Source: Escherichia coli (GTDB lineage: Bacteria > Pseudomonadota > Gammaproteobacteria > Enterobacterales > Enterobacteriaceae). From it: a DNA stretch of 64,000 nt. Location of the stretch: the NCBI RefSeq assembly GCF_003334405.1, contig NZ_QOWM01000018.1; one strand, given 5' to 3'. Made by a program: the position numbers and the translations under genes. Numbering within the stretch: the stretch's first letter is position 1; every line of letters begins with the position of its first letter. Shown one piece after another: positions 34,397 through 54,242 of this stretch. The notes beneath the pieces are model-generated. The model searched no databases. It was given only the letters and a program-made list of their open reading frames with translations, and was not told the DNA's origin.

Positions 34397-34429
34397 GGCC
34401 GCGCCGGATTCTGGCGCGGCCTTTTTTTT
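34397..34429. terminator. bidirectional terminator between convergent trbC and nikB
   Basis: AGGCCGCGCC-loop-GGCGCGGCCT hairpin followed by T8. Confidence 0.6.
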
Positions 34430-37127
34430 AACCTGGAGAAGGCGGTTCCCAGCGTTTATCCTGCTCCGGCGGAGGCAGTGATGCGTCATCGTTGCTGTTC
34501 GCCGCGATATAATCGCGGTAGTAGCGTTCACTTCCTTCACGGTGATGATCCACGTCCGGTCGCGTAATCCTGTAGTCTTCGTGACCGGTACGGCCTGTCA
34601 CATTATGCCAGGCAACCATTTCAGCAAAGACCTGGTTAAATTGTTTGTCGTTTCCTTCTGGTTCAAAACCCATGCGTGGATCACGCCCGAATAATACCGG
34701 TGCAATCAAATCCAGTTTATCTGCCAGCGCATTGCGGTCATGGTGATTACGGAAAACAACCCTGTCACCATAATCCGTACAGACAAACTCTCCCGTCCGA
34801 CGGTCACGGAAACGAACACTCCCGTTCTTCTGCAGACGGGCCTCGAGATCACCGGTATTACCGTATACCGGCGTTCCGCCCGGTTCACAAAGCACGACAC
34901 AGCGGTCTGTCGTCGTTGTGCGTGACTTGTCTTTACGGCGATCGCGATAATCCCAGCCTCTCAGCTGCGATACAGCAGCCCTGTCTCCCTGAGCAGCCTG
35001 AATTTCGACCCACTGACGGTAAGAGGGTGGATACCACTTCCCGTCAGCAATAAGTTTCTGTCGCTCATCCCTGATGTCTTCTTTCAGTCTGATCAATGCC
35101 TGCATTCGCTGAACTTCTGCAATGTGATAATGCAGCTTACGTAATGCCGGATCATCGTACTGCGCACGAATGTGTGACTTCCGCAGACGGCATGCCTGAT
35201 GAATTTCCCGACAACGTTCCCCATAACGCAGATCCGGTTTACGCCATTGTTCACGCCATGCCAGATAGCGGGCACGCAGGTCAGCACGGGCCTCAGCCCT
35301 GGCTTCACGTCGCTGCCGGCGCAGCATTGGATCACGTTTACTGCTGACCCCGTACCTGTCACTGACAGCCAGCTCCGGGTTATAGCGATTTTCAGGTTGC
35401 ACCCTGTCAAACAAATCTGCTGGGGCACTCACAAAAGGTCCGGCCTGTGGCTCCGCACGCCCCAGTGTCAGATCAGGATGAATGCTGCTGGCTTTCACCG
35501 GCGTTTGCTCATGATTAAAGGCATCAACGACAACAAGCCCGTGATGTTGTTTCTGTAGCATCAGTCCCTGTTGTGCAAACAGCTCATGACAACGCTGCCA
35601 GGTAAACTCACCCTGTGTGATCATTTCTTCAATCTGAGGGCTACAATGGCTGATGCTGTATCCCCACAGACTTTCTTTGTCAGAAAACAGTTCGCGTTTG
35701 ATAGCCCCCTGCGGCCCCGTACCTGTACGCATACGGTGCCATTCTTTATCGGTCGCAGGACAGCTCTCCATACGACGACCACGGAAGCGTTCTGTTGGCG
35801 TAACCTGGCGAAAAATATCTGTTGGTACAGGCTGCCAGCCACCATCGAGTTGATTCACATTGTCGAGCGTCAGCAGTGACCATACGCTGTCAGCACGAAC
35901 GGGAGTCTGGTTATGATCATAACCGTCACAGATAACCAGGTGACCATGCTGAACACGCATCCATAATCCCGCTTCAGCCAGTGTGCGGTGAATAGCCTGG
36001 CAGTTTTCCAGCCGTCCTTCCCGTGCCATTTCCGGCAGACGTTCTCCAAGATGACGACAGGCATACTGCTGCAGACTTTCTGTTTCAGCGATTTTTTCCG
36101 GGCGAACATCAGCTGCAATGAAGTCCGGATTATAGCGTCCTGGTGCTTCCACCTGGCTGAAAATGTCTTTTGGTACTGGCGTGTAGTCACCCATTTTTTT
36201 CATGAGTTTTTCTGCACACCAGGAAGGGCCAAACGAGTCAAGCTGTACACCTTCCCTGTTGCGATCCCAGCCATCCATCACCAGAAATTTTCCGTCCATC
36301 TGAGACAGGTACAGACCATCTTCAGCAAGACGACGATGCAGGGATAACCAGTCATGTACAGGTTCACTGCGTAAACCAGCTACCGCTGTCTGCGCAACAT
36401 ACTCGCGAAAAGTTTGTTTTCTCCCGCGTGTCCACGCGTTCTGGCGATCACGTTCAACGGCGGTTTTGCGAACGATACGATTTCCCGGTGCATGGACCCA
36501 GCAACCGTTATCCGGAGCAAAACCATGCTTCAGTTCAAGCTCACGGCAGGCACGACTGAGTTTTTCCTGACTCCAGGATAACCGGTTCAGATAACCCGTT
36601 TCAGGGTGTACCCGGTTAACAGCCACATGGGCGTGCAGATTATCTGTATCAGTATGCACGGCAGAGACATACTGATGGTCGGCAAGGCCGAGTGATTTCA
36701 GCGTATGACGTACACTGTCATAAATCTGTTCCGGACGCGGGCTTTCATGTGACTGCCAGGAAAGGATGTAGTGAAAAACAGGATCAGTGTCATCTTTTGC
36801 ATAGTGTGCCTGCCGGGCAATGTACTCCATATCTGCAGCGGCAGTTTCAAGAGAAGTACAGTTATGAAAGCAGGTGACACCATAAAAGTTGACCCATTCG
36901 CAGCCGTCCTTCATGACATCAACCAGCGCCACGAATGACTCATTTCGAAGACGTGTCGCATAATCAACAAGGCGACTGAAACGGCTTCGGTGCGGTTGTT
37001 CAGCCTGCGAAGAAGAAGATAAATCCAGTTCCTCATCGGTCATGTCATCCCGGACAGAGACGTAGGATACCAGGTCTTCGAACGAAGACTTGCCGTCCCT
37101 TCTCTTTTTCGGAATGACTGCATTCAC
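34428..37127 (-). CDS. nikB: oriT relaxase NikB (MOBP family)
   Basis: 899 aa; histidine motif HTDTDNLHAHVAVNRVHPETG; adjacent to nikA and oriT. Confidence 0.85.
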   Translation of the reverse strand: MNAVIPKKRRDGKSSFEDLVSYVSVRDDMTDEELDLSSSSQAEQPHRSRFSRLVDYATRLRNESFVALVDVMKDGCEWVNFYGVTCFHNCTSLETAAADMEYIARQAHYAKDDTDPVFHYILSWQSHESPRPEQIYDSVRHTLKSLGLADHQYVSAVHTDTDNLHAHVAVNRVHPETGYLNRLSWSQEKLSRACRELELKHGFAPDNGCWVHAPGNRIVRKTAVERDRQNAWTRGRKQTFREYVAQTAVAGLRSEPVHDWLSLHRRLAEDGLYLSQMDGKFLVMDGWDRNREGVQLDSFGPSWCAEKLMKKMGDYTPVPKDIFSQVEAPGRYNPDFIAADVRPEKIAETESLQQYACRHLGERLPEMAREGRLENCQAIHRTLAEAGLWMRVQHGHLVICDGYDHNQTPVRADSVWSLLTLDNVNQLDGGWQPVPTDIFRQVTPTERFRGRRMESCPATDKEWHRMRTGTGPQGAIKRELFSDKESLWGYSISHCSPQIEEMITQGEFTWQRCHELFAQQGLMLQKQHHGLVVVDAFNHEQTPVKASSIHPDLTLGRAEPQAGPFVSAPADLFDRVQPENRYNPELAVSDRYGVSSKRDPMLRRQRREARAEARADLRARYLAWREQWRKPDLRYGERCREIHQACRLRKSHIRAQYDDPALRKLHYHIAEVQRMQALIRLKEDIRDERQKLIADGKWYPPSYRQWVEIQAAQGDRAAVSQLRGWDYRDRRKDKSRTTTTDRCVVLCEPGGTPVYGNTGDLEARLQKNGSVRFRDRRTGEFVCTDYGDRVVFRNHHDRNALADKLDLIAPVLFGRDPRMGFEPEGNDKQFNQVFAEMVAWHNVTGRTGHEDYRITRPDVDHHREGSERYYRDYIAANSNDDASLPPPEQDKRWEPPSPG

Positions 37128-37137
37128 CGGAGAATCC

Positions 37138-37470
37138 TCAACCTTCCATTAACTGTTTACGCAATGTATTTGTAAGTTCGGTTATGGCAACAAGCACTTC
37201 TGCGTATTCCTTGTCACCGGTTCTTTTTCCCTGAACAAACAGATGCTTCTGCATCCTTCCCAGTCTCATTAACTCCTTCAGAAAAGCATCATCTGTACGG
37301 GAGTTAATTCGCTTATTCAGTGCTGCATTTCGGATGTAAGCAGATACAGTAAGTCCGGAATCTTCAGCTTTTTTCCTGATGGTTTCATCCTCAACAGGAG
37401 AGAATCTGAGTGTCCTGACAACTGTCTTTTGCCGTACCTCACTTTTCTTTCTTACCGCACTATCACTCAC
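37138..37470 (-). CDS. nikA: relaxosome accessory protein NikA (ribbon-helix-helix)
   Basis: 110 aa from GTG 37470 with AAGGAG RBS; sequence VSDSAVRKKSEVRQKTVVRTLRFSPVEDE. Confidence 0.8.
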   Translation of the reverse strand: MSDSAVRKKSEVRQKTVVRTLRFSPVEDETIRKKAEDSGLTVSAYIRNAALNKRINSRTDDAFLKELMRLGRMQKHLFVQGKRTGDKEYAEVLVAITELTNTLRKQLMEG

Positions 37471-37509
37471 TTCAGGCTCCTTACGGGGTGTCGGGGCGAA
37501 GCCCTGACC

Positions 37510-37570
37510 AGATGGCAATTGTAATAGCGTCGCGTGTGACGGTATTACAATTGCACATCCTGTCCCGTTT
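37510..37570 (+). promoter_or_regulatory. oriT: origin of transfer oriT: inverted repeat 37516-37526/37543-37553 and nick-region motif CACATCCTGT at 37554-37563
   Basis: CAATTGTAATA-N16-TATTACAATTG followed by ATCCTG, directly upstream of nikA. Confidence 0.7.
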
Positions 37571-39834: not shown

Positions 39835-39993
39835 CTACTGCTCATCAGGAAACAGTTTTTTCAGTTCTTCACCGGAAAGTCCGGTCGCCTCCTGAATCCG
39901 TTCCGGCGGCCAGCCCATATCCCGCAGCCGGCAGGCTATTTCCCGCGCCACTTCAAGAGCGCCTTTTTGAATAAGACGTTCTGCAATCGTCAT
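39835..39993 (-). CDS. free-standing RpnS-like small protein (homolog of Rpn C-terminal tail)
   Basis: 52 aa from ATG 39993: MTIAERLIQKGALEVAREIACRLRDMGWPPERIQEATGLSGEELKKLFPDEQ, parallels the last 61 aa of adjacent Rpn. Confidence 0.45.
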   Translation of the reverse strand: MTIAERLIQKGALEVAREIACRLRDMGWPPERIQEATGLSGEELKKLFPDEQ

Positions 39994-40055
39994 GCTGTTT
40001 GCTCTGCTCCTGCTGGCAAAAAAGCCCGGGATTTTGCCGGGCTTTGCGGTTCTCA

Positions 40056-40970
40056 TTAGTGAGTTATTTTCTTCAGTTCGTCATCGGAAAGTCCGGTAGC
40101 CTGCTTAATCTGCTCCGGCGTCATCCCCATTTTCTGAAGCTGGCACGCAATAGCCAGGGCTTTTTCAAGCGCTCCTTCCATGCGTCCTTCCATCCTGCCT
40201 TCCTGGCGACCTTTTTGCTCAAGACGTTCTGCGATAGTCATCAGTTTATCCTCATGCTGCGGCAGACGCTCAGCCAGCGCCCGCATAAATTCCGGTGATA
40301 CAGAGTCCCCTGCGTTAACGATGTAATGAATCAGAACACGCACCTGCTCGTCTGAAATTTCCACCATGACCTGCGGGAGTTTGTCCAGCAGCTCCATCAT
40401 GTCACGATGGCGGATATGCTTCATCAGCAGCGTCAGTGCGGCCATCCGGCGATGGTTCATGATTTCATTGTCATCAACGACAGTGATATCAACCAGCGGA
40501 AACGGCTTTGTGTATATTTTAGCCGCAAGTGCCGGATTCTCAAAACAGTCCAGCCAGTTCATGCTGTACGGATACGGGCTGCGCTCACCATGATAGAACA
40601 GCACCGGAATCACCAGTGGCAACGTTTTGTGCTGCTCCAGATGTCTCTGCATCGCCGCCACACTGTAACGTAACATGCGGAAAGGCATGTACAGATTTTC
40701 GGTGCTCTGGTGCTCGATGAGCGTATAAACATAGCCATCTTCACCCCCGGTGGTTTTCACGCTCCAGAGGATATCGCTGGCGTACTGATGCAGGTCCGGC
40801 TCAACAAAGGTGGCGGGTTCCAGCTTCAGCGTGGACAGGTCGCACAACTGCCGGTACTCCGCCGGAAGATGCAGTTCCAGAAAATCTCTGGCGACGTCGG
40901 GATTCGCCAGGAACGACCGGAACGCGGCATCGTGCGGCGTGGGCGTTGTGGTGTTTTTCTTCTTACTCAC
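40056..40970 (-). CDS. Rpn-family (YhgA-like, PD-(D/E)xK) recombination-promoting nuclease
   Basis: 304 aa from GTG 40970 with AGGAGG RBS; motifs DGYVYTLIEHQSTEN, in-frame internal Met MTIAERLEQKG 61 aa from the end. Confidence 0.65.
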   Translation of the reverse strand: MSKKKNTTTPTPHDAAFRSFLANPDVARDFLELHLPAEYRQLCDLSTLKLEPATFVEPDLHQYASDILWSVKTTGGEDGYVYTLIEHQSTENLYMPFRMLRYSVAAMQRHLEQHKTLPLVIPVLFYHGERSPYPYSMNWLDCFENPALAAKIYTKPFPLVDITVVDDNEIMNHRRMAALTLLMKHIRHRDMMELLDKLPQVMVEISDEQVRVLIHYIVNAGDSVSPEFMRALAERLPQHEDKLMTIAERLEQKGRQEGRMEGRMEGALEKALAIACQLQKMGMTPEQIKQATGLSDDELKKITH

Positions 40971-41034
40971 GGTTCCTCCTGGTGAGATGTCTGAACGTAT
41001 CCTGCCGCCTGCACAGGCAGACGGCAAGGGTTAA

Positions 41035-41879: not shown

Positions 41880-42375
41880 CCGGAGGGGCGAAAGCCCCTT
41901 CTGCCGTCCACTTCTTCGGGGTTTCTCCCCGCAGTGGACCTTTCCGATGGGGCGTCCGTCACCACGTCACGGGGCAGCTGTCCGGGGGCGGACGCAAAAT
42001 TTTTTGCCGGGTTTATGGCTAAAAATTTTGTGGACGGTATATCTTCCCCTGGACTGCTGAAACGGGATGTGGTTACTCCAGCCCCCGGAAAGTCCACAGC
42101 GGGAAACAGGCCGCAGGGGTGGCGGCGGAAGGGTTGACTGCGCCATCAGGCGCAGTTGCCTTACACACCGTCAGGTGTGCAGGGAGCGCCGTTTCCGGCG
42201 CGACAGGGGCGGCGCGACCGGAACGGTCGCTGCAAGCCTGGTTTTTCAGACATCGGACCGTAGCGGCAGCCCGAAACCGCGCCAGCGGGTTCGGCGGAGA
42301 CTGGCGGGTGCGCCAGCAGCTGCCTGTCGGAGTCGGGCCTGACGACCGGATGCCGCCAGGCAGCCGGGAGCCGAA
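41880..42375. promoter_or_regulatory. structured repeat family 1, copy B (Frpo/ssi-like single-strand promoter candidate)
   Basis: ~500 bp, near-identical to 48225-48728; many internal hairpins (CTGCGCCATCAGGCGCAG, CACACCGTCAGGTGTG). Confidence 0.6.
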
Positions 42376-42557
42376 GGTGTCCCCGCCTCCGGAAATCAGA
42401 ACAACAGAAACGACATAACAGAAAAATGCCTCACACCATGACGGGCAGGAAGGGCAGCGCCGCAGGCGCGGCCCTCCTGCATTTCAGGCAGGCGTAAGCC
42501 TGCCAGGGTTTTCCGGCGGCCTGGCAGGCCATACCCCCGCCGGAGCGGGGGAGTAAA

Positions 42558-43058
42558 TCACCGACGGAACACATGACCGTCAATAAAGGTGAAGGAGTCC
42601 AGGAATAAATCCCGCGCATACGCCTCATAGTCAAAATAGAGCGCCACCGTCTCCGGCACGTCAGCCAGCAGGCCGGTATCACTGGCGAACTCAACCGCAA
42701 AAGCCTCCTCACTGTCAGCCTCGCCCCACCAGGCATCGCGGAAGGTGTCAAAATCCGTCTCACCGGTATCATCCACCCAGAGACGATAAGCCTCTTCGCA
42801 GCCTTCATCCCGCGCCTGGCGGAAGCCTTCAACCCAGGCCCAGTTGATATGACATTCAGAGGCCATATTCCCCGGGAATCCCTCATAATCCTGAAACATC
42901 AGTTCAGGATCGGCTTCATCCTGGTGAAGAGCACGGCAGGCGGCGAAAAAGTCGCGCTCATCATCAAACGTGGTCAGGTCAAACCAGCGGCCAGCGATGC
43001 TTCCACAGTTGTATTTGTGCCAGGTTCCAACGTATACAGCAGGGGCAACAACAGACAT
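42558..43058 (-). CDS. ardA: antirestriction protein ArdA (DNA mimic)
   Basis: 166 aa from ATG 43058: [34 protein letters not shown], very acidic. Confidence 0.8.
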
Positions 43059-43085
43059 TCCCGAATCCTCCATAGTCACATGTTC

Positions 43086-43396
43086 TGCGACACCGGGCGG
43101 TGCCGTGCCTCCATAAAAGCCGGGCGATAAGGCGGGGATGCACAGGGCGCAAGGGAAGCCGCAGCCTGACGCACACGGCTGGCGGGAGTTGGAGGGTGAG
43201 ACCGCGAAATCTGAGCGGGTGAACGACCGGAAAATCACGGCAGACGGGAAGGAGGGACCGGGTGACCGCAGCGGCGAAGCGTACCCTTGCATCCCTGCCA
43301 GCCCGGCTAAGATGGAGGCACGGCACAGCCCGCACACGATACGGCGGCCACAGAGCTGAAAACCCACAAGGCCATGCCCCGCATGGCCGGGTAAAA
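43086..43396. repeat. structured repeat family 2, copy 1 (~310 bp, identical to 50040-50349)
   Basis: direct comparison of the two stretches; immediately 5' of ardA. Confidence 0.7.
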
Positions 43397-43520
43397 GCGG
43401 AGCCGCCGGCGACTTCCTTATTCCGGCGAGTGCAGAGGACACGCCGCATGACCTCCAGACCACCCCTGATATGAAACGATCATGATCGGCGTGTCCCTGC
43501 GTAAAATATACATGCCTGGT

Positions 43521-44117
43521 TCACCGGAGAATATCTGTGATATCCACAAGTTTTCTGTCGCGCAGCCAGTCCTGCGCTTCACGCACCACACAACTGTCCG
43601 GTTTCACCGCTTTCAGCGATGATGCCAGTCGCTTGATCAACATCACCAGTTCCCGTGTCTGTATGTCCGGCATTGTCTCCGGCGGAGCAGGGGGACTCTC
43701 ATTTCCGACGCTCATCCCATGCGCTTCCAGTGTGGCACGGACAAACCAGGCGGCATCGACCAGTTGCTGGCGAATCCAGGCCAGATCGGTATTTCTGTCA
43801 CGGGCTGCCATTCGCTCGCCCGACAGCGCCTTGCTGATATGGCTGCGCACCAGATTATCCAGGAGTGCCTGCGCTTCTTCCGGTGAAAAGCCACCTGGTA
43901 TCTCTGTGCGCAACAGCCCTTTCCTGTACAGAAGCTGCAGCAGATCAACCTGCGACCGCACAGCAACTATCAGTACATAACGGACAACATTCGCACTGGC
44001 AGTGGTTTCTGTATCATTCAGCAGTTCTTCCGAATCGTTCCCCCCGGTGTTGCAGAGCAACGGCAACAGAGGTCGCATCCACGCGGGAACCTGGTATTTT
44101 TCGTCTGATTTCATCAT
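43521..44117 (-). CDS. hypothetical leading-region protein
   Basis: 198 aa from ATG 44117, ATGA overlap with psiA stop. Confidence 0.55.
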   Translation of the reverse strand: MMKSDEKYQVPAWMRPLLPLLCNTGGNDSEELLNDTETTASANVVRYVLIVAVRSQVDLLQLLYRKGLLRTEIPGGFSPEEAQALLDNLVRSHISKALSGERMAARDRNTDLAWIRQQLVDAAWFVRATLEAHGMSVGNESPPAPPETMPDIQTRELVMLIKRLASSLKAVKPDSCVVREAQDWLRDRKLVDITDILR

Positions 44118-44833
44118 ATTACGTTCTCCAGCTTGTTCGGGATCATCCACTGCTCAAGTGCACGTACCTGTACCGGTGCACCACGACCGGCCTCACCGGC
44201 TTCAAAAATCAGCCGCCAGAGTGGTTCCTCCTGCCAGAAAAACCGGTCAAATGATGACAGTGATGGAAAACGCCCGCACCACCCCCAGAAAATCGTTTCC
44301 AGATCATGCTCCTCAACAACACCAGACCAGCGGGACAACCAGCTTCCGACCGTGGCGGGAGTATGAAACGCAAGGTCAATCTGCGCCTGAGCAAAACATG
44401 TCTGGTATTCCAGTTCCCGTCGTTCTGCCTCACGTTCCCGCTGGCGGCTGTATTTCTGCTCTGTCAGCGTGGTTTTCTGACGACGACGCTCACCTTCACG
44501 AAAAGGCACGGACGGGAACAGACGGTGCCCCGCATCGGATGGCAGGGGAAGAACACAGACTTCACCAAAACTTTCAATCAGTTTATCCACGGCAGCCAGC
44601 CACAGGAGACGGTTGCCATGAAATTCCTCCTTCGTCAGCGCAGGGGCAAAAAAGCGGAGATCGGTCAGCGAAATCCGGCGACTGCCATTCAGGCAGCGAA
44701 AGAAAGCGGTGGCATAAGGCCATGCTGAAAGTGTGCGTCCCTGACGACGACGTTGTTCTGTGACAGCCACCGCCTGCATGGCGGCCTGTTGTTCTGCGCT
44801 GAGGGGGATCAGTGCCCGTGAACGTGCGCTCAT
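44114..44833 (-). CDS. psiA: plasmid SOS-inhibition protein PsiA
   Basis: 239 aa, [18 protein letters not shown], overlaps psiB stop. Confidence 0.8.
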
Positions 44834-48157: not shown

Positions 48158-48224
48158 AAGAACCTCCTGACTGAAAGATGTGAGATAAACCGGATACCGG
48201 CGACGGGACGTTCATGTGCCCCTT

Positions 48225-48728
48225 CAGAGGAGCGAAAGCTCCTCCTGCCGTCCACTTCACAGGGGTTTCTCCCCGCAGTGGACCTTTCCGATGGGGGCCC
48301 GTTTACCGCCTCACGGGACAGCTGTCCGGGGGCGGACGCAAAATTTTTTGCCGGGTTCATGGCTAAAAATTTTGTGGCCGGTGCATCTCACCCTGGACAG
48401 ATGGAACGGGAGGGGGTTACGTCTGCCCCCCGGAAAGGTCCACAGCGGGGAAACAGGCCGCAGAGGTGGCGGCAGGAGGGAAGACTGCTGCGCCATCAGG
48501 CGCAGTTTCCTCACACACCGTCAGGTGTGCAGGGAGCGCAGGTTACGGCGCGACAGAGGCGGCGCGACCGGAACGGTCGCTGCAAGCCCGGGTTTTCACG
48601 CATCGGACCGTAGCGACAGCCCGAAACCGCGCCAGCGGGTTCGGCGGAGACTGGCGGGTGCGCAAGCAGCTGCCTGTCGGAGTCGGGCCTGACGACCGGA
48701 TGCCGCCAGGCAGCCGGGAGCCGAAGTG
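48225..48728. promoter_or_regulatory. structured repeat family 1, copy C (Frpo/ssi-like single-strand promoter candidate) 5' of ssb
   Basis: ~500 bp near-identical to copy B. Confidence 0.6.
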
Positions 48729-48928
48729 GGCGCAATAAAAGACAGCCAGAAACGGTGACAGTGTCACGGAATATCACACCTGTTCCTGGCATACAGTCAT
48801 ACACTACCTTCTGACCGGAAAGCCGGGCCGGCAGCGCCGCAGGCGCTGCACCCCGCGTTTCCGGCAGGCGTCAGCCTGCCAGGGGTTTTCGCGCGGGCTG
48901 ACAGGCGGCCTCCACCGCCTGCCCTGTA

Positions 48929-49120
48929 TCACCTGTTTCTGCTGCCCTGAAGGATATAGTGACCACCGAGGAAAACCGCCTGCTGATTCACCACAAAATC
49001 GCAGATTTCATCAACAATCTGCGCAGTGGTGAGCGGTTTCTGCCCCATTTCACGACGCCGCGCATTAATCACGGCTTTGTAATTGCGCAGAATTTCGCGG
49101 GTTTCTGTGCTGATATTCAT
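48929..49120 (-). CDS. hypothetical small protein
   Basis: 63-aa ORF overlapping stop of upstream gene. Confidence 0.4.
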   Translation of the reverse strand: MNISTETREILRNYKAVINARRREMGQKPLTTAQIVDEICDFVVNQQAVFLGGHYILQGSRNR

Positions 49121-49539
49121 GACATGTGCTCCCCGTCCAGCGCCTGTAACACAACGTCCATCGCTTCGCGTTCTTCCCTGACGAATGCGTCACCGTCGCC
49201 CCCGTTCTCACTCCCGACGGCATACAGGCGCTTCATTTCACTGCCTGCCAGCGCCACCACTTTTTCCAGCATCACCGCCGGGACTGTCACCTGACGGCTG
49301 ACGCGCTTTTCTTCCATCAGTTCACGAACAACGTCGTGAACAACGCTGACATCCGCACCATGCTCAAAGGCATCGTCCAGCCGCTGCATGACGGTTTCCA
49401 GCTCATCGTCTGACAGGTTCCAGTCCTGGGCTATGTGACGCACATCCCCACGGGTCAGCACCACGGCAAAAACGCATTCACTGTCCGGCACGTCTGTATC
49501 CAGCACTTCGCGGATAATTTCTTTAACAGTACAGTACAT
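49117..49539 (-). CDS. hypothetical leading-region protein (paralog of 51256-51705)
   Basis: 140 aa; shares MY.T.EI..E...LSD.E..TV..RL.D and RQV.VP pattern with the 149-aa ORF. Confidence 0.6.
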   Translation of the reverse strand: MYCTVKEIIREVLDTDVPDSECVFAVVLTRGDVRHIAQDWNLSDDELETVMQRLDDAFEHGADVSVVHDVVRELMEEKRVSRQVTVPAVMLEKVVALAGSEMKRLYAVGSENGGDGDAFVREEREAMDVVLQALDGEHMS

Positions 49540-49585
49540 TTTCTCGTCTCCTTTACAGGGGCGGCATTGCCGCCCCGTCCGTTAA

Positions 49586-50011
49586 TCAGTCCAGAGCCGC
49601 GTAAATCGCGTTGCATTCAGGGTGAAATTCGATGTGACGCCACAACTGCGCATCGCGCATCCGGTAAAGCTGGGTCAGTCCTGCATCACCGCTGTCGTGG
49701 TACAGCCACAACTGGCGGTTAATCACAAGGGAAGTCAGAATGATGCCGCAGGCATCAGCACTCACGGTACGGTCAAACCAGTTTGCACCGTTCACTATGT
49801 GGAAACGGTCGCCATCTGGCATCATGTAGCCGCCACCGTCCGGCAGGCGGATGAAGTGCCAGAATCCGCCTTCATATTCCGGCATCATTTGTTTCGCCAG
49901 CGCGTATACAGACGCTTCGGCATACAGAAAATCCTGGCCAAACAGGTAAGGCAGAAAAGACAAACGGTCGCACTCTTCAACGTTCAGAGTGACAGGTTTC
50001 GCATATTGCAT
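49586..50011 (-). CDS. KlcA/ArdB-family antirestriction protein
   Basis: 141 aa; family-like motifs [43 protein letters not shown]. Confidence 0.65.
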
Positions 50012-50039
50012 GATGTTTTCCTCCGTTGTTCACATATTC

Positions 50040-50349
50040 CGCGACACCGGGCGGTGCCGTGCCTCCATAAAAGCCGGGCGATAAGGCGGGGATGCACAGG
50101 GCGCAAGGGAAGCCGCAGCCTGACGCACACGGCTGGCGGGAGTTGGAGGGTGAGACCGCGAAATCTGAGCGGGTGAACGACCGGAAAATCACGGCAGACG
50201 GGAAGGAGGGACCGGGTGACCGCAGCGGCGAAGCGTACCCTTGCATCCCTGCCAGCCCGGCTAAGATGGAGGCACGGCACAGCCCGCACACGATACGGCG
50301 GCCACAGAGCTGAAAACCCACAAGGCCATGCCCCGCATGGCCGGGTAAA
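50040..50349. repeat. structured repeat family 2, copy 2 (~310 bp, identical to 43086-43396)
   Basis: immediately 5' of the KlcA-like gene. Confidence 0.7.
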
Positions 50350-50428
50350 GCGGAGCCGGCGGCGACTTCCTTTGTGCTCTGTCCGGGGACCGGCAGGAAA
50401 AAGGCGGGAATTTACCCCGCCAGTGTCA

Positions 50429-51256
50429 TCATTTCCGGATTTTTGCCAGGGCATCCGCCATGCTGCGGATTTCGGTCCGGGCTTCCCGGACCACCTCCCG
50501 CAGAACACCACGGTCAAACCAGCGGCGGGGCGGTTCATCGGGTATACGCAGCACATCGCAGGCCAGCCCACTGGACAGGATATGCTCAATACAATCGCTG
50601 ACCAGGTACATTTCCACCGACGAAAAACGTGCTCCCCGGTTCACTATGGCATCGAGCACCACGGGCAGGTTTTCGTCATCTTCATCGAGCCAGCAGGGGT
50701 GATCGCTTTCCTTCACGACCAGGCGAAAGCGGCGCGTCTGGCGGGTCAGCAACGTCTGACCGGTGGTGGTCAGCGCCGCACGGATACGCCGCGCATCTTC
50801 TGCCACCTGGTAACAGATGCTTCGTACCGCATCGTGCACCGCATCAAGAACAGCCCTGATTTCGTCTTCGGTCAGCCATTCTCCGGCATACGGGAAAGAC
50901 ACCTGCGTTCCGTCTGCCGGAAGTACCGGCAGCGATTGCCACTGACTGCCGGACAGTACCAGTTCCGCCCCGGTTCCGGTCAGTCTCTGAATGGCGGAGG
51001 CCAGGAGCGGCGGCAGCACGCCGCCGTGACGGTTGATAAGTAAGGTCGCCAGCCGGGGCGCATCCAGCAGAACATAAATGCTGATCCAGCCCGGATACTT
51101 CGGGTTACGCTGGTCAACATCCGTCTCTTCCGGCCAGCCCTGCGCCAGCAGCAGGTTGCGGGCGTGACGACAAATCAGTGCGTTCAGCGTGCTGTTTTCG
51201 TTCATGATTAAGCGTTCTCCCTGTATCGCCGCCCGCAGGGCAGGCGGCGATAACAT
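50429..51256 (-). CDS. hypothetical leading-region protein
   Basis: 275 aa; start overlaps upstream stop (TGATG); alternative ATG 51205 has GGGAGAA RBS. Confidence 0.55.
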
Positions 51257-51705
51257 CAGTTGTTTTCGTGTGTGTTGTTTTTCAGCAGGCTGCGGGCCTG
51301 ATTAACCACCGCCTGACGACGGGTGACGCATTCCGGGACGGTGAGTCCGTTATCACGGGCGGCCCATTCACGCTTCCACAATGCCTGTTCAGCGGTCTGA
51401 ATCAGGGACGCCAGCAGTTCAACAGGGACGGACACCTGGCGGTTTTCGCTCACGTTGCTGATAATCTCCATCGCAGCGGCGGAAGAAATACCGGACTCAA
51501 TCCGCTGGTCTTCCGGGATGTCCTCCAGGCGCGCCAGGACAGTCCTGATTTCATGATCGGACAGGGAAATATCCATTCCGTCAGCGAGGGCCTGAATCTC
51601 TTCCGGGGACCAGACAACCAGCATCAGTGGCGTGTCTGCCGGATACTTTGCTGCCAGCTCCCGGCAGAGTATTTCGCATGTTCCGTACATACTCTCTCCC
51701 CTCAA
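51256..51705 (-). CDS. hypothetical leading-region protein (paralog of 49117-49539)
   Basis: 149 aa, ATGA overlap with upstream gene. Confidence 0.6.
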
Positions 51706-51923
51706 TCTTTGAAGCAGGAATCCAGTTCCAGAATTTCGGTATATGCCTCCATCAGGAGGCGGTTTGCGCGAAACAACGTCTGACGCACCAGACGTTCCGG
51801 CAGGGTGTCAGCATTAAAGCTGTACCGCCGCTCCATCTCATTCATGGTTGTACGCAGGTCGCACATGGCATTGGCCACCTCCGCCACTTCGGCGCGAAGT
51901 TTTTCATGTCCGGCATAGTTCAT
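51702..51923 (-). CDS. hypothetical small protein
   Basis: 73 aa, adjacent to methyltransferase stop. Confidence 0.45.
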   Translation of the reverse strand: MNYAGHEKLRAEVAEVANAMCDLRTTMNEMERRYSFNADTLPERLVRQTLFRANRLLMEAYTEILELDSCFKD

Positions 51924-52607
51924 TTACGCAGCCTCCGGCATAAACCAGTCATCATTTGCGGCCCCCTGCTGCATGGCCCGCTGTACGGCAGCCAGACGTT
52001 GCTGTCCGGCACGGTGATACTGCTCAAGCAGCTCGATACCGATATACCGGCGTCCGGACTGAAGGGCGGCCACGCAGGTTGAGCCGCTGCCTGCAAACGG
52101 GTCCAGCACAATCGCGTTCGGATGTGTGAAGCTCTCAATCAGTGGTTGCAGGCTGGTAACAGGCTTTTCCGTCGGGTGATGACGATTGCCTGAATATTTC
52201 CAGCCCAGCACGTCGGGTAATGGCTTCTGAGGCAGCGCCGGACGGCCTTTTGCCAGAACGTAGGCGCATTCGTGGCGATAACCCACATATGCGGCCTTCG
52301 ATGTGTAGTTTTTGGTGAAGACCAGGTGCCCAACCACACTGAATCCCGCATTTTTCCAGGCGGCCATAAAGCGATCGACGCGGTTCCAGCCGTAGAAGCT
52401 GACCATCAGCGCATCTTTTTTGAGTACGCGATACATTTCATTACAGGCTGGTTGCAGCCATTCATCGGTTTTATCGCCGGCGATGGTACGCCCCTGTCGG
52501 TCACGAAAACCGACGAGGTATGGCGGGTCAGTCAGTATGAAATCAATGCCGTTATCAGGAATACGCGCCATAACATCAATGCAGTTACCGAGGACAAAAC
52601 GGGACAT
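51924..52607 (-). CDS. orphan DNA methyltransferase (N6-adenine/N4-cytosine class, beta-type motif order)
   Basis: motif IV DPPY followed by motif I LDPFAGSGST; AAGGAG RBS; no adjacent restriction gene. Confidence 0.8.
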   Translation of the reverse strand: MSRFVLGNCIDVMARIPDNGIDFILTDPPYLVGFRDRQGRTIAGDKTDEWLQPACNEMYRVLKKDALMVSFYGWNRVDRFMAAWKNAGFSVVGHLVFTKNYTSKAAYVGYRHECAYVLAKGRPALPQKPLPDVLGWKYSGNRHHPTEKPVTSLQPLIESFTHPNAIVLDPFAGSGSTCVAALQSGRRYIGIELLEQYHRAGQQRLAAVQRAMQQGAANDDWFMPEAA

Positions 52608-52991
52608 AACAACACTCCTTCTTTCTCAGAGGGCACCGGGAGGGCACCCCTGTGGTGCCCGTTCCCCGCTGCCTGTGGGCTGTTCACCGCGTCCGGTAAC
52701 GGGTCAGGCCGACCGTGGAATATCGCAGCCGTCGTCTTTTTGACGGCGAGAATATGCCGCGAAAGCGGCTTGAAGGGCGTTCATCAGAAAAGGGCGACAG
52801 GCTGGCGTACACTGTCACCGACGCCAGCCGGGAGCGGTAAAAGCGCCCGTCCCGTGCCCGCCGGACGCGGGACACTGACCACAGGCAGCGTTTATGCCGC
52901 GCCGCATCAGCCGGCGCAGTAAACAGAGGAGCACGGCGACATCCTTTGTCGGAAAAGAAACGGGCGGTTGCCCGCCCGTCTCCGTCATACT

Positions 52992-53918
52992 TCATCCACC
53001 GTAATGCGCCACCTTGTCGACTATCCACGCAGGTCCGGTGACTTCCGGCAGCTCATCGTCATCTGTCGGGGAAGACCATTCCAGTTCCCCCCAGAGCACA
53101 TCAACGAGCTCTCCGCGCTCATACAACTGCCAGCCACAGAAATTGCAGCCCTGTTCGGCGTACCAGTGCTCCAGCGTGCAGCCGAAACGGCGGCTTAATG
53201 CTGCAACAACGTCGCTTTCCGGCTGACACCACGGCGTGTCGAAATCCACCTGAATGCAGTTGTCTCCCTGACTACTGATATTCAGGTCATACCCACAAGG
53301 CCACTTCACGCCATACCGTTCTGTATACCAGTGATATGCAGAAGGAACACCGTTCAGAACACCACCATTAAAGCCATTCACTTCAACATCCAGGCGGGTC
53401 GGCAGAACCGTCAGCAGGTCAAACGGCATGGTTTTTTCCGGCACTACGTTGTCACACAGACGGTTCCACCACACCGATACATCCTCGCTACCCCAGATGT
53501 CACACCAGTCACCTCTTTTTGCGGTGAAATGCACAGTGATGGTTTCCCTGACATCATCCGGTAATCCTTCCCAGCGACGCTGTCCAGTACCGCTCTGCAG
53601 CCAGAGCTCATGCAGCATCAGGCAGTTTTGCTCATCCAGCAGTACACCGTTCTGCAGGTGTGTCAGCCAGCGGGTGAACGCGATATTTTCCGTCGATACA
53701 GCACCACGTCCGGCAGCCGTCACTCCGGGGCACTGTTCAGAGCGGATATTTTCAGTGATCTGCAGAAGTCCGGCACTTCCGGCCAGAAACAGCTGAATAC
53801 CTTCATTTGTGGCGCGGCGATAAAGCGGTGTAACTGCACCGCTGGCCAGTCGTTTAATCTCAGCGATCTGTGCCGGTTCACCAGAAAAATACATACGATT
53901 CGAGCACCAGTTTGGCAT
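52992..53918 (-). CDS. hypothetical Cys/Trp-rich leading-region protein
   Basis: 308 aa from ATG 53918 (MPNWCSNRMYFSG), AGGAGA RBS. Confidence 0.55.
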   Translation of the reverse strand: MPNWCSNRMYFSGEPAQIAEIKRLASGAVTPLYRRATNEGIQLFLAGSAGLLQITENIRSEQCPGVTAAGRGAVSTENIAFTRWLTHLQNGVLLDEQNCLMLHELWLQSGTGQRRWEGLPDDVRETITVHFTAKRGDWCDIWGSEDVSVWWNRLCDNVVPEKTMPFDLLTVLPTRLDVEVNGFNGGVLNGVPSAYHWYTERYGVKWPCGYDLNISSQGDNCIQVDFDTPWCQPESDVVAALSRRFGCTLEHWYAEQGCNFCGWQLYERGELVDVLWGELEWSSPTDDDELPEVTGPAWIVDKVAHYGG

Positions 53919-54242
53919 GGGAATTCTCCTCTCACATGCGGCCTCCATCAGGCCGTGCCGCACCTGTTACCGGGCGACCGCATACGAATGCAGGTGCGGC
54001 CCCGAAGCCGCAGCGCGTGGAGGAGGAACGACGAAACGTGACCGGGTGAGGAGGCCGGCGACAGCGACACACTTGCATCGGATGCAGCCCGGTTAACGTG
54101 CCGGCACGGCCTGGGTAACCAGGTATTTTGTCCACAGAACCGTGCACAAAATGCTGTGGATAAGCTGGACACAGCAGCCCACAGCAGGCATACAGCCACA
54201 CACTCAGAGAATTGAGCGTTTTTTAGTCACAACAATGACATT

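Follow-up and report, generated by a model that had tools for sequence, protein, structure and literature searches.

The leading regions of the plasmids F, ColIb-P9, R64 and pESBL contain the same two small genes in the same order, which in F are named yubF (yfcB), a DUF1380 gene, and yubJ (yfeC). In the classification of Samuel et al. (2024, Nature, PMC11541004) they correspond to family 7 (DUF1380/YcgB/YubF; 3957 members, median gene position 19 from the origin of transfer, oriT) and family 14 (YcjA/YcgC/YubJ; 3145 members, position 15 from oriT), both lying on the strand that permits transcription from the transferred strand (Supplementary Table 1 in PMC11541004). The only orthologs with mutant phenotypes are genes 910 and 940 of plasmid pMS7163B, which occupy the same positions (PMC10286972). 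Here we analyzed this pair in a 64,000-nucleotide (nt) stretch of Escherichia coli DNA (assembly GCF_003334405.1, contig NZ_QOWM01000018.1; the whole stretch is called the window below), which is an IncI1-type conjugative plasmid. Both genes lie on the minus strand. YubJ (also YcjA, YfeC, YcgC; ortholog of pMS7163B_00910) is a protein of 140 amino acids (aa) encoded at 49117..49539 behind the antirestriction gene klcA (ardB). YubF (also YcgB, YfcB; Hp10 of pESBL; ortholog of pMS7163B_00940), probably of 144 aa, is encoded at 51256..51690 in the operon of a DNA methylase.

The window does not differ substantively from F and ColIb-P9, its yubF being just a less common allele. At 48900-52700 the identity to ColIb-P9 (NC_002122) is 98.6%, and at least 5000 plasmid records match this segment. 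Its proteins are 92-96% identical to those of F, where the order is the same: methylase gene, 73-aa gene, DUF1380 gene, ~258-aa gene, klcA, DUF1380-like gene, 63-aa gene and ssb. In pMS7163B gene 930 replaces the 258-aa gene of the window. In the RefSeq annotation of ColIb-P9, F and pMS7163B, both genes bear the name 'DUF1380 family protein', and the genes and this label are already public for these and thousands of other F-like and I-like plasmids. The homology of families 7 and 14 is not stated in the literature that we found: PMC11541004 treats the two as unrelated, whereas in our analysis they are homologous and form one family, and the authors of PMC10286972 do not mention genes 910 and 940 as paralogs or as DUF1380 members. 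A literature search with DUF1380, ycjA, ycgB and similar names revealed no functional study. Roughly two in three complete E. coli genomes contain DUF1380 genes, as do thousands of resistance plasmids.

Homology of YubJ and YubF

A prediction made from the letters of the window had proposed that the 140-aa open reading frame (ORF) and a 149-aa ORF are paralogs aligning over their length, and had named the significance of this alignment as the point on which the proposal should stand or fall. The alignment remained significant under pairwise, shuffle-based and profile-based scoring. Composition-adjusted BLASTP gave 27% identity over 120 aa (E=9e-9), and the motif string of the original prediction (MY.T ... 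LSD.E..TV..RL.D ... RQV.VP...L) is visible in this alignment. The Smith-Waterman score of the pair was 92, against a mean of 29.6 (standard deviation 5.2, maximum 63) for 5000 composition-preserving shuffles (z=12, Gumbel p~1e-7). When the profiles of the KlcA-linked and methylase-linked clades were compared with hhalign, they aligned end to end with a probability of 98.6% (E=5.3e-16; 132 of ~140 columns). Both proteins matched phrog_9024 (YubF at 1.4e-71, YubJ at 1.6e-5). Positions M1, Y2, T4, L13, E21, a glycine near 61 and L134 are collinear and common to both clades, as is the motif R-x-V-x-V-P-A-x-x-L at 82-91.

Since both proteins are acidic and helical and their identity is merely 24-27%, one may ask whether the resemblance is an artefact of composition. 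The E-value of 9e-9 is, however, already adjusted for composition, no shuffle reached the observed score (z=12), the conserved positions run collinearly from M1-Y2-x-T4 through RxVxVPAxxL to L134, and the hhalign value is E=5e-16; we give the artefact a negligible probability. YubJ and YubF are true homologs, paralogous over their full length.

YubF matches Pfam DUF1380 (PF07128) over model positions 1-137 of 137 (E=2e-52), whereas YubJ has no Pfam match even at E<=10 and its orthologs have 'weak' precomputed PF07128 matches; YubJ belongs to a divergent sister clade lying just beyond the reach of this model. An NCBIfam scan with six proteins of both operons gave nothing meaningful. Two further domain matches, PP-binding of Pfam on YubF (E=0.0075) and FabG2 on YubJ (E=0.003, far below the cut-off), were dismissed as noise.

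Both ORFs were found at the predicted positions on the minus strand, although the length given for the second one probably needs correction. The mechanically delimited ORF of 149 aa begins with a TTG at 51705; translation more likely begins with the ATG at 51690, which gives 144 aa and is favoured because of the ribosome-binding site GAGGGGAGAG and the family-conserved N-terminus MYGT. In comparison with F, the ratio of non-synonymous to synonymous substitution rates (dN/dS) is 0.12 for yubJ and 0.24 for yubF, values like those of klcA, ssb and the methylase gene. Both DUF1380 genes are real and under purifying selection.

In 1.84 billion proteins DUF1380 has 288 representatives at 50% identity, many of them fragments, and its full-length members comprise 134-145 aa. 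The family is nearly confined to plasmids of Enterobacterales (its relatives in AFDB are almost all from this order), and a tblastn search of phage genomes with YubF gave no match. DUF1380 proteins with 86-91% identity to that of the window also appeared in contigs of 3-11 kb from an Oscillibacter sp. metagenome-assembled genome (MAG), an Oscillospiraceae MAG and Streptomyces morookaense; contamination of these assemblies with enterobacterial plasmids is the most likely explanation. Among 5426 complete E. coli genomes, yubJ was found in 3479 (~64%; 4741 records) and yubF in 3301 (~61%; 4405 records). For yubJ, 4793 of the 4852 E. coli matches are on plasmids, and yubF is likewise nearly always plasmid-borne. 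The alleles of the window are unequally common. Its yubJ has 229 E. coli records at least 99% identical and the methylase gene beside yubF has 146, as compared with one of 4405 for yubF, for which 4210 records are 90-95% identical at the DNA level. The rarity of this yubF allele next to commoner methylase and yubJ alleles is a hint of mosaic ancestry within the operon.

The AlphaFold2 model of YubJ, calculated with a 27-sequence alignment, is all-helical with six helices and a mean predicted local distance difference test (pLDDT) score of 82; a model from a 12-sequence alignment (pLDDT 54) was discarded. In it, an N-terminal domain is joined through an extended conserved linker to a long helical hairpin at the C-terminus (88-111 and 116-138). 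Apart from generic helical hairpins, nothing among the solved structures was similar to the model, and a search of AFDB returned DUF1380 proteins only. A profile search against PDB sequences gave only designed helical proteins and calmodulin-like noise. As enzyme-like and DNA-binding features are lacking, protein binding is the most likely mode of action.

These data bear on the names under which YubJ circulates. Family 14 is labelled 'putative DNA-methyltransferase' in the legend to Fig. 1c of PMC11541004, 1082 of its 3145 members have best matches named 'Adenine-specific methyltransferase', a name also borne by many UniProt entries of the family, and UniProt entry A7ZH45 is named 'Putative DNA methylase'. 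What speaks for a methyltransferase is a set of database names. A size of 140 aa and an all-helical model with a pLDDT of 82 are at odds with the alpha/beta Rossmann-type fold that binds S-adenosylmethionine; moreover, YubJ has no Pfam match, does not resemble the methylase encoded nearby and gave no significant match in fold searches. It is extremely improbable that YubJ methylates DNA, and the label on family 14 is untenable; the names look like a carry-over from the neighbouring methylase.

The two clades differ in charge and in some conserved residues. Members of the YubJ clade have net charges of -13 to -17 (-17 for YubJ of the window), those of the YubF clade -1 to -11. Each clade also has conserved residues of its own, some of them in the C-terminal hairpin; examples are a GGGD loop for one and AEQALWxxEW for the other. 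These differences are compatible with the predicted divergence of the paralogs toward different host factors.

An ancient duplication of a single gene

To date the duplication, the genomic context of distant family members was looked up, and three divergent contigs (L003, L005 and L007) were found to hold both copies. Within one plasmid, YubJ and YubF are 22-24% identical in four divergent plasmids, and the average between the clades is 23%. In a neighbour-joining tree the KlcA-linked and the methylase-linked proteins are split with 83% bootstrap support. The neighbours are equally constant: the order methylase-YubE-DUF1380 (YubE being the 73-aa protein) was present in all contexts that show the upstream side (L003, L005, L007, L009 and L010), KlcA followed by a DUF1380-like gene was present in L003, L005, L006, L007 and L008, and F and pMS7163B share the same gene order around both paralogs. 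Because the within-plasmid identity equals the between-clade average while the neighbours stay the same, the duplication predates the divergence of these plasmids.

The related-locus search with the canonical, methylase-linked clade gave six loci, and the E. coli-wide counts were used for the neighbour tally. Of the records from complete E. coli genomes, 4741 contain yubJ and 4790 contain klcA; 4824 contain either gene and in 4659 the two are adjacent. The corresponding numbers are 4405 for yubF, 4565 for the methylase gene, 4590 for either and 4353 for the complete methylase-yubE-yubF triad. Expressed differently, ~97.6% of the records with klcA or yubJ hold both, as do ~95% of those with the methylase gene or yubF. 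Outside these close relatives, linkage to the neighbours persists down to ~25-35% identity. The duplication is ancient and involved a single gene, and each lineage kept its own neighbour. Fusions of DUF1380 to its neighbours were seen on rare occasions, with YubE in five protein clusters, KlcA with the YubJ-type protein in two and the YubF-type with the 258-aa protein in one; they are mostly metagenome singletons, likely produced by frameshifts or miscalled starts, and were not counted as Rosetta-stone evidence.

The two genes had also been predicted to sit in different operons, one downstream of a KlcA-like gene and one downstream of a methyltransferase gene. This was borne out, with one refinement. 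The klcA operon begins with klcA itself (49586..50011, minus strand; phrog_10132, E=3e-18; 'antirestriction protein' in RefSeq), which adjoins yubJ with a gap of 46 nt. Its last gene is a 63-aa ORF (48929..49120, minus strand) whose start overlaps the yubJ stop by 4 nt; this ORF is kept in F, ColIb-P9 and pMS7163B (gene 900). The methylase operon starts with the gene for an M.EcoGIX-type adenine methyltransferase (51924..52607, minus strand; 'DNA methylase' in RefSeq, PF01555 in orthologous loci) whose function on single-stranded DNA (ssDNA) is published (PMC7736820, PMC4288162). The refinement is that yubF belongs to this operon without following the methylase gene directly: yubE (51702..51923, minus strand; 73 aa, PF27407, phrog_4830 at E=5e-34) lies between them, 0 nt from the methylase gene and 11 nt from yubF, and PF27407 is present in every orthologous locus. 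Last comes a 258-aa gene of the YubG/YchA type (50429..51205, minus strand; its mechanical ORF runs to 51256), with a phrog_8919 match at residues 18-275 and an F ortholog that also has 258 aa. At 50403..50421 on the minus strand, 8 nt past the stop of this gene, a terminator-like stem-loop with a T run parts the two operons.

Each operon has its own hairpin upstream. That of klcA (50030..50329, plus strand; arms 50048-50079 and 50255-50286; inverted repeat I6, direct repeat D1), folded in the plus strand, which is the transferred and template strand, has a DNA fold of -81.8 kcal/mol (z=-4.6). That of the methylase gene (52667..52890, plus strand; inverted repeat I8) has a fold of -87.4 kcal/mol (z=-6.4) and is kept in F, L005 and L007. 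Both DUF1380 genes are located in the leading region and oriented so that the transferred strand serves as template, and no sigma-70-like promoter for these operons was found on the gene strand. The fold z-scores support a hairpin in both places, and the promoter classes given here follow the published scheme for the IncI1 plasmid pESBL, in which six operons have ssDNA promoters: class 1 is ssi/Frpo, class 2 precedes ardA and klcA, and class 3 precedes M.EcoGIX (PMC12672017). The DUF1380 operons thus use different promoter classes, because class 2 drives klcA, class 3 drives M.EcoGIX and the two sequences are unrelated.

From the paralogous pair, together with the repeat families of the region, the original prediction had concluded that the island grew by duplication and shuffling of whole modules. 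Long repeats do exist, and promoter-cargo cassettes do vary among plasmids. However, all repeats concerned are ssDNA promoters, and they never pair the two DUF1380 operons. The segments 43076-43375 and 50030-50329, 99% identical over 300 nt (direct repeat D1), are the elements upstream of ardA and klcA; the former is a second class 2 promoter (43076..43375, plus strand) upstream of ardA (42558-43058), with 98% identity to the klcA copy over 355 nt. The other long repeat (41883-42515 with 48227-48891, ~650 nt, 85-95%) comprises the ssb promoter and an element at 41.9-42.5 kb. The long DNA repeats of the leading region (85-99% identical) are promoter elements and contain no gene modules. The klcA promoter, 98-99% identical to that of ardA, has no similarity to the methylase promoter. 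Comparison of the klcA operon (48900-50430) with the methylase operon (50431-53000) by blastn and tblastx gave nothing above chance, and all-against-all BLASTP of 20 leading-region proteins revealed no similar pairs other than YubJ/YubF and an Rpn fragment. The neighbours of the paralogs are unrelated, and the paralogs themselves are just 24% identical, each with orthologs at the same position in distant plasmids. Only one gene was duplicated, and growth of the island by whole-module duplication is very unlikely.

The part of this proposal that stands concerns shuffling, in a restricted sense. In a contig of Hafnia paralvei (NZ_LXET01000065.1) methylase-YubE-DUF1380 is intact and klcA and yubJ are jointly absent. 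At 1740-2870 of this contig, a class 2-like promoter (75% identity over 113 nt) drives ardA at the klcA/yubJ position, and the 63-aa ORF follows ardA. The class 2 promoter drives klcA, ardA and further genes, depending on the plasmid. The Hafnia arrangement is an exchange of cassettes behind one promoter type, and this is the sole supported sense of shuffling.

Possible roles in plasmid establishment

The following picture would account for these observations. The DUF1380 gene alone was duplicated long ago, and its two lineages have become fixed as promoter-distal passengers of two different 'establishment' operons: methylase-YubE-YubF-YubG behind a class 3 hairpin and KlcA-YubJ-orf63 behind a class 2 hairpin. 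On entry into the recipient, the hairpins of the transferred strand would act as promoters, and the operons would be transcribed for minutes and then silenced after synthesis of the complementary strand. In agreement with this, transient induction in transconjugants from ssDNA promoters is published for both operons, that of klcA and that of M.EcoGIX, in pESBL and F (PMC12672017). The products, acidic all-helical proteins of ~140 residues, would act by binding other proteins. YubJ may share a pathway with KlcA and in this way help the plasmid to evade type I (EcoKI) restriction, and YubF may play a corresponding role beside the ssDNA methylase and be harmful if expressed constitutively. Homology, age of the duplication, linkage, operon anatomy and purifying selection follow from the present analysis, and the early induction and mutant phenotypes come from the literature; what we infer is protein binding, a partnership with KlcA or with the methylase, and a role in anti-restriction. 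The picture as a whole, that of ancient paralogs turned accessory anti-restriction factors of early operons, is held with moderate confidence, its chances being about even.

The phenotypes that bear on it come from pMS7163B, an I-complex plasmid. By sequence, its gene 910 is 97% identical to YubJ and gene 940 is 90% identical to YubF, while 920 is ardB/klcA, 950 is YubE and 960 is M.EcoGIX. Transposon directed insertion-site sequencing (TraDIS) was carried out with an hsdRMS-deficient TOP10 donor and a J53 recipient described as EcoKI-proficient (PLoS Genet 2023, PMC10286972). The log2 fold change was -3.41 for ardB (false discovery rate, FDR, 3.8e-156), -2.35 for 910 (FDR 1.8e-99) and -1.67 for 940 (FDR 1.8e-73), the last value falling under the authors' cut-off of -2 (PMC10286972). 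The 910::Cm and ardB::Cm mutants transferred like the wild type from EcoKI+ MG1655 (their Table G) and significantly worse from hsdRMS- TOP10 (their text); the authors attribute the ardB result to restriction of unmodified DNA by EcoKI and offer no explanation for 910 (PMC10286972). Disruption of 910 cannot have a polar effect on ardB, since ardB is the upstream gene of the two. Gene 910, the unexplained conjugation gene, and gene 940 are sisters, 910 being the DUF1380 paralog linked to KlcA. The ardB-like donor dependence of the 910::Cm mutant is part of what suggests, for the orthologous YubJ, an anti-restriction role. Linking the family to these phenotypes offers a concrete testable lead, evasion of type I restriction during plasmid entry.

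For gene 940 the data are of a different kind. An insertion in 950 raised the 930/940 transcripts ~1000-fold (cycle threshold, Ct, from ~31 to ~21) and conjugation was lost, whereas a scarless 950 deletion mutant was like the wild type; overexpression of 930/940 led to rapid out-competition in cis and caused no growth defect in trans (PMC10286972). With a wild-type Ct of ~31 as compared with ~24 for repA, 940 is essentially silent in the established plasmid, as expected for a gene with an ssDNA promoter.

Several points weigh against the picture outlined above. Neither fold nor sequence of the DUF1380 proteins resembles ArdA, ArdB, Ocr or any solved structure. Cloned KlcA/ArdB is not known to need a DUF1380 partner in vivo. 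In transposon sequencing (TnSeq) of pESBL, the genes for the methylase, YubE (Hp9), the YubF ortholog (Hp10) and Hp11 were dispensable for transfer and maintenance in laboratory matings (PMC4288162). The 910::Cm mutant was not complemented and an effect of the cassette on the downstream 63-aa gene is possible, and the TraDIS value of 940, below the cut-off, is confounded by read-through into 930 (PMC10286972). After cell-free synthesis, M.EcoGIX methylates ssDNA unaided (PMC7736820), and cloned KlcA/ArdB is reported to be active in vivo (PMC2836571). Neither neighbour therefore strictly needs its DUF1380 protein.

YubJ is like KlcA/ArdB in its operon, its early expression and, for its ortholog, the donor dependence of the mutant; unlike DUF1380, KlcA/ArdB has a solved fold and a demonstrated activity, and there is no similarity of sequence or fold between them. 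With ArdA and Ocr, which are acidic DNA mimics, the DUF1380 proteins share small size, strong acidity (net charge -17 for YubJ) and early expression from the leading region; they differ from these proteins in that no fold match or evidence of DNA mimicry was found and that the YubF clade is just mildly acidic.

A more specific version of the anti-restriction picture can be considered, in which DUF1380 would be a family of cofactors with two branches: YubJ would be the partner of KlcA/ArdB against type I enzymes at native expression levels and YubF would tune or target M.EcoGIX. We regard this version as speculative and unlikely. If it were true, the KlcA partnership might bear on the reported activity of KlcA/ArdB in vivo and not in vitro, and two plasmid entry genes that rank with the most abundant of the uncharacterised ones would become defined anti-defence components.

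Alternatively, both proteins might work independently, inhibiting or acting as decoys for host factors that have no relation to the products encoded beside them, for instance other defence systems or repair proteins; the linkage would then reflect only shared early timing. Anti-defence inhibitors are typically small, acidic and helical, the clades have conserved surfaces of their own, and families 7 and 14 are among the largest uncharacterised leading-region families (PMC11541004). The activity of M.EcoGIX without DUF1380 proteins also fits, as does that of KlcA, which is not known to need them. Against this stand the very tight linkage to the neighbours down to ~25-35% identity, the joint absence of klcA and yubJ in Hafnia, and the fact that the 910 mutant shares the donor-dependent phenotype of ardB. 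We consider independent action rather unlikely.

The third possibility derives from the behaviour of 930/940, where overexpression in cis abolished conjugation and led to rapid out-competition without a growth defect in trans, and from the silence of 940 in established plasmids. These data could indicate factors that time or brake the plasmid's own DNA processing, double-strand conversion or transfer. The effect could, however, stem from gene 930 instead of 940, and acidic proteins without DNA-binding motifs are poor candidates for regulators. Moreover, the 910 phenotype varies with the restriction-modification status of the donor, which points to restriction. A timing function appears unlikely, and escape from restriction, as proposed above for YubJ, is the reading that we prefer.

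Leading-region setting and further observations

On the minus strand, 34428-37518 is occupied by the relaxase genes nikB and nikA, and the leading region extends from ~37.7 to 54 kb, all its genes at 38-54 kb being on the minus strand. Their order is a 283-aa gene, an Rpn-family gene, ardA, psiA/psiB, a ParB-like gene, a DUF905 gene, ssb, the 63-aa ORF, yubJ, klcA, the 258-aa gene, yubF, the 73-aa yubE, the DNA methylase gene and a DUF1281 gene, followed by impCAB. This layout mirrors the leading-region map of pESBL (PMC4288162), and in F the block and its gene order are the same.

Minor differences and remnants were found in the first part of this region. In ColIb-P9 (2924-4099 of the locus compared) a TnpB-family gene associated with insertion sequences lies between psiA and ardA; the window lacks it and has a 209-aa ORF (43521-44150) at ~43.4-43.5 kb. 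The product of a 73-aa ORF at 39835-40056 (minus strand) is 54% identical (E=3.6e-14) to the C-terminal ~60 residues of the adjacent 323-aa Rpn protein (40056-41027, minus strand). This ORF looks like a remnant of a second copy of the gene for Rpn, a recombination-promoting nuclease.

Another hairpin was revealed at 53949-54113 (arms 53949-53975 and 54087-54113) in the template strand, upstream of the DUF1281 gene (52992-53963, minus strand). Its DNA fold is -49.4 kcal/mol (z=-2.8), its similarity to the class 2 promoter is weak (74% over 73 nt, E=6e-5), and F (95%) and L005 (82%) have it in front of their DUF1281 genes as well. It could be one more ssDNA promoter.

Finally, long mechanical ORFs span the G+C-rich hairpin promoters at 49984-50589 and 42979-43449 on the minus strand and at 50216-51043 and 48216-48692 on the plus strand. 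The equivalent of 49984-50557 is labelled 'DUF1472 domain-containing protein' in one public record, and RefSeq 'DUF1472' entries were present among the homolog clusters; these ORFs are probably translations of promoters and not genes.

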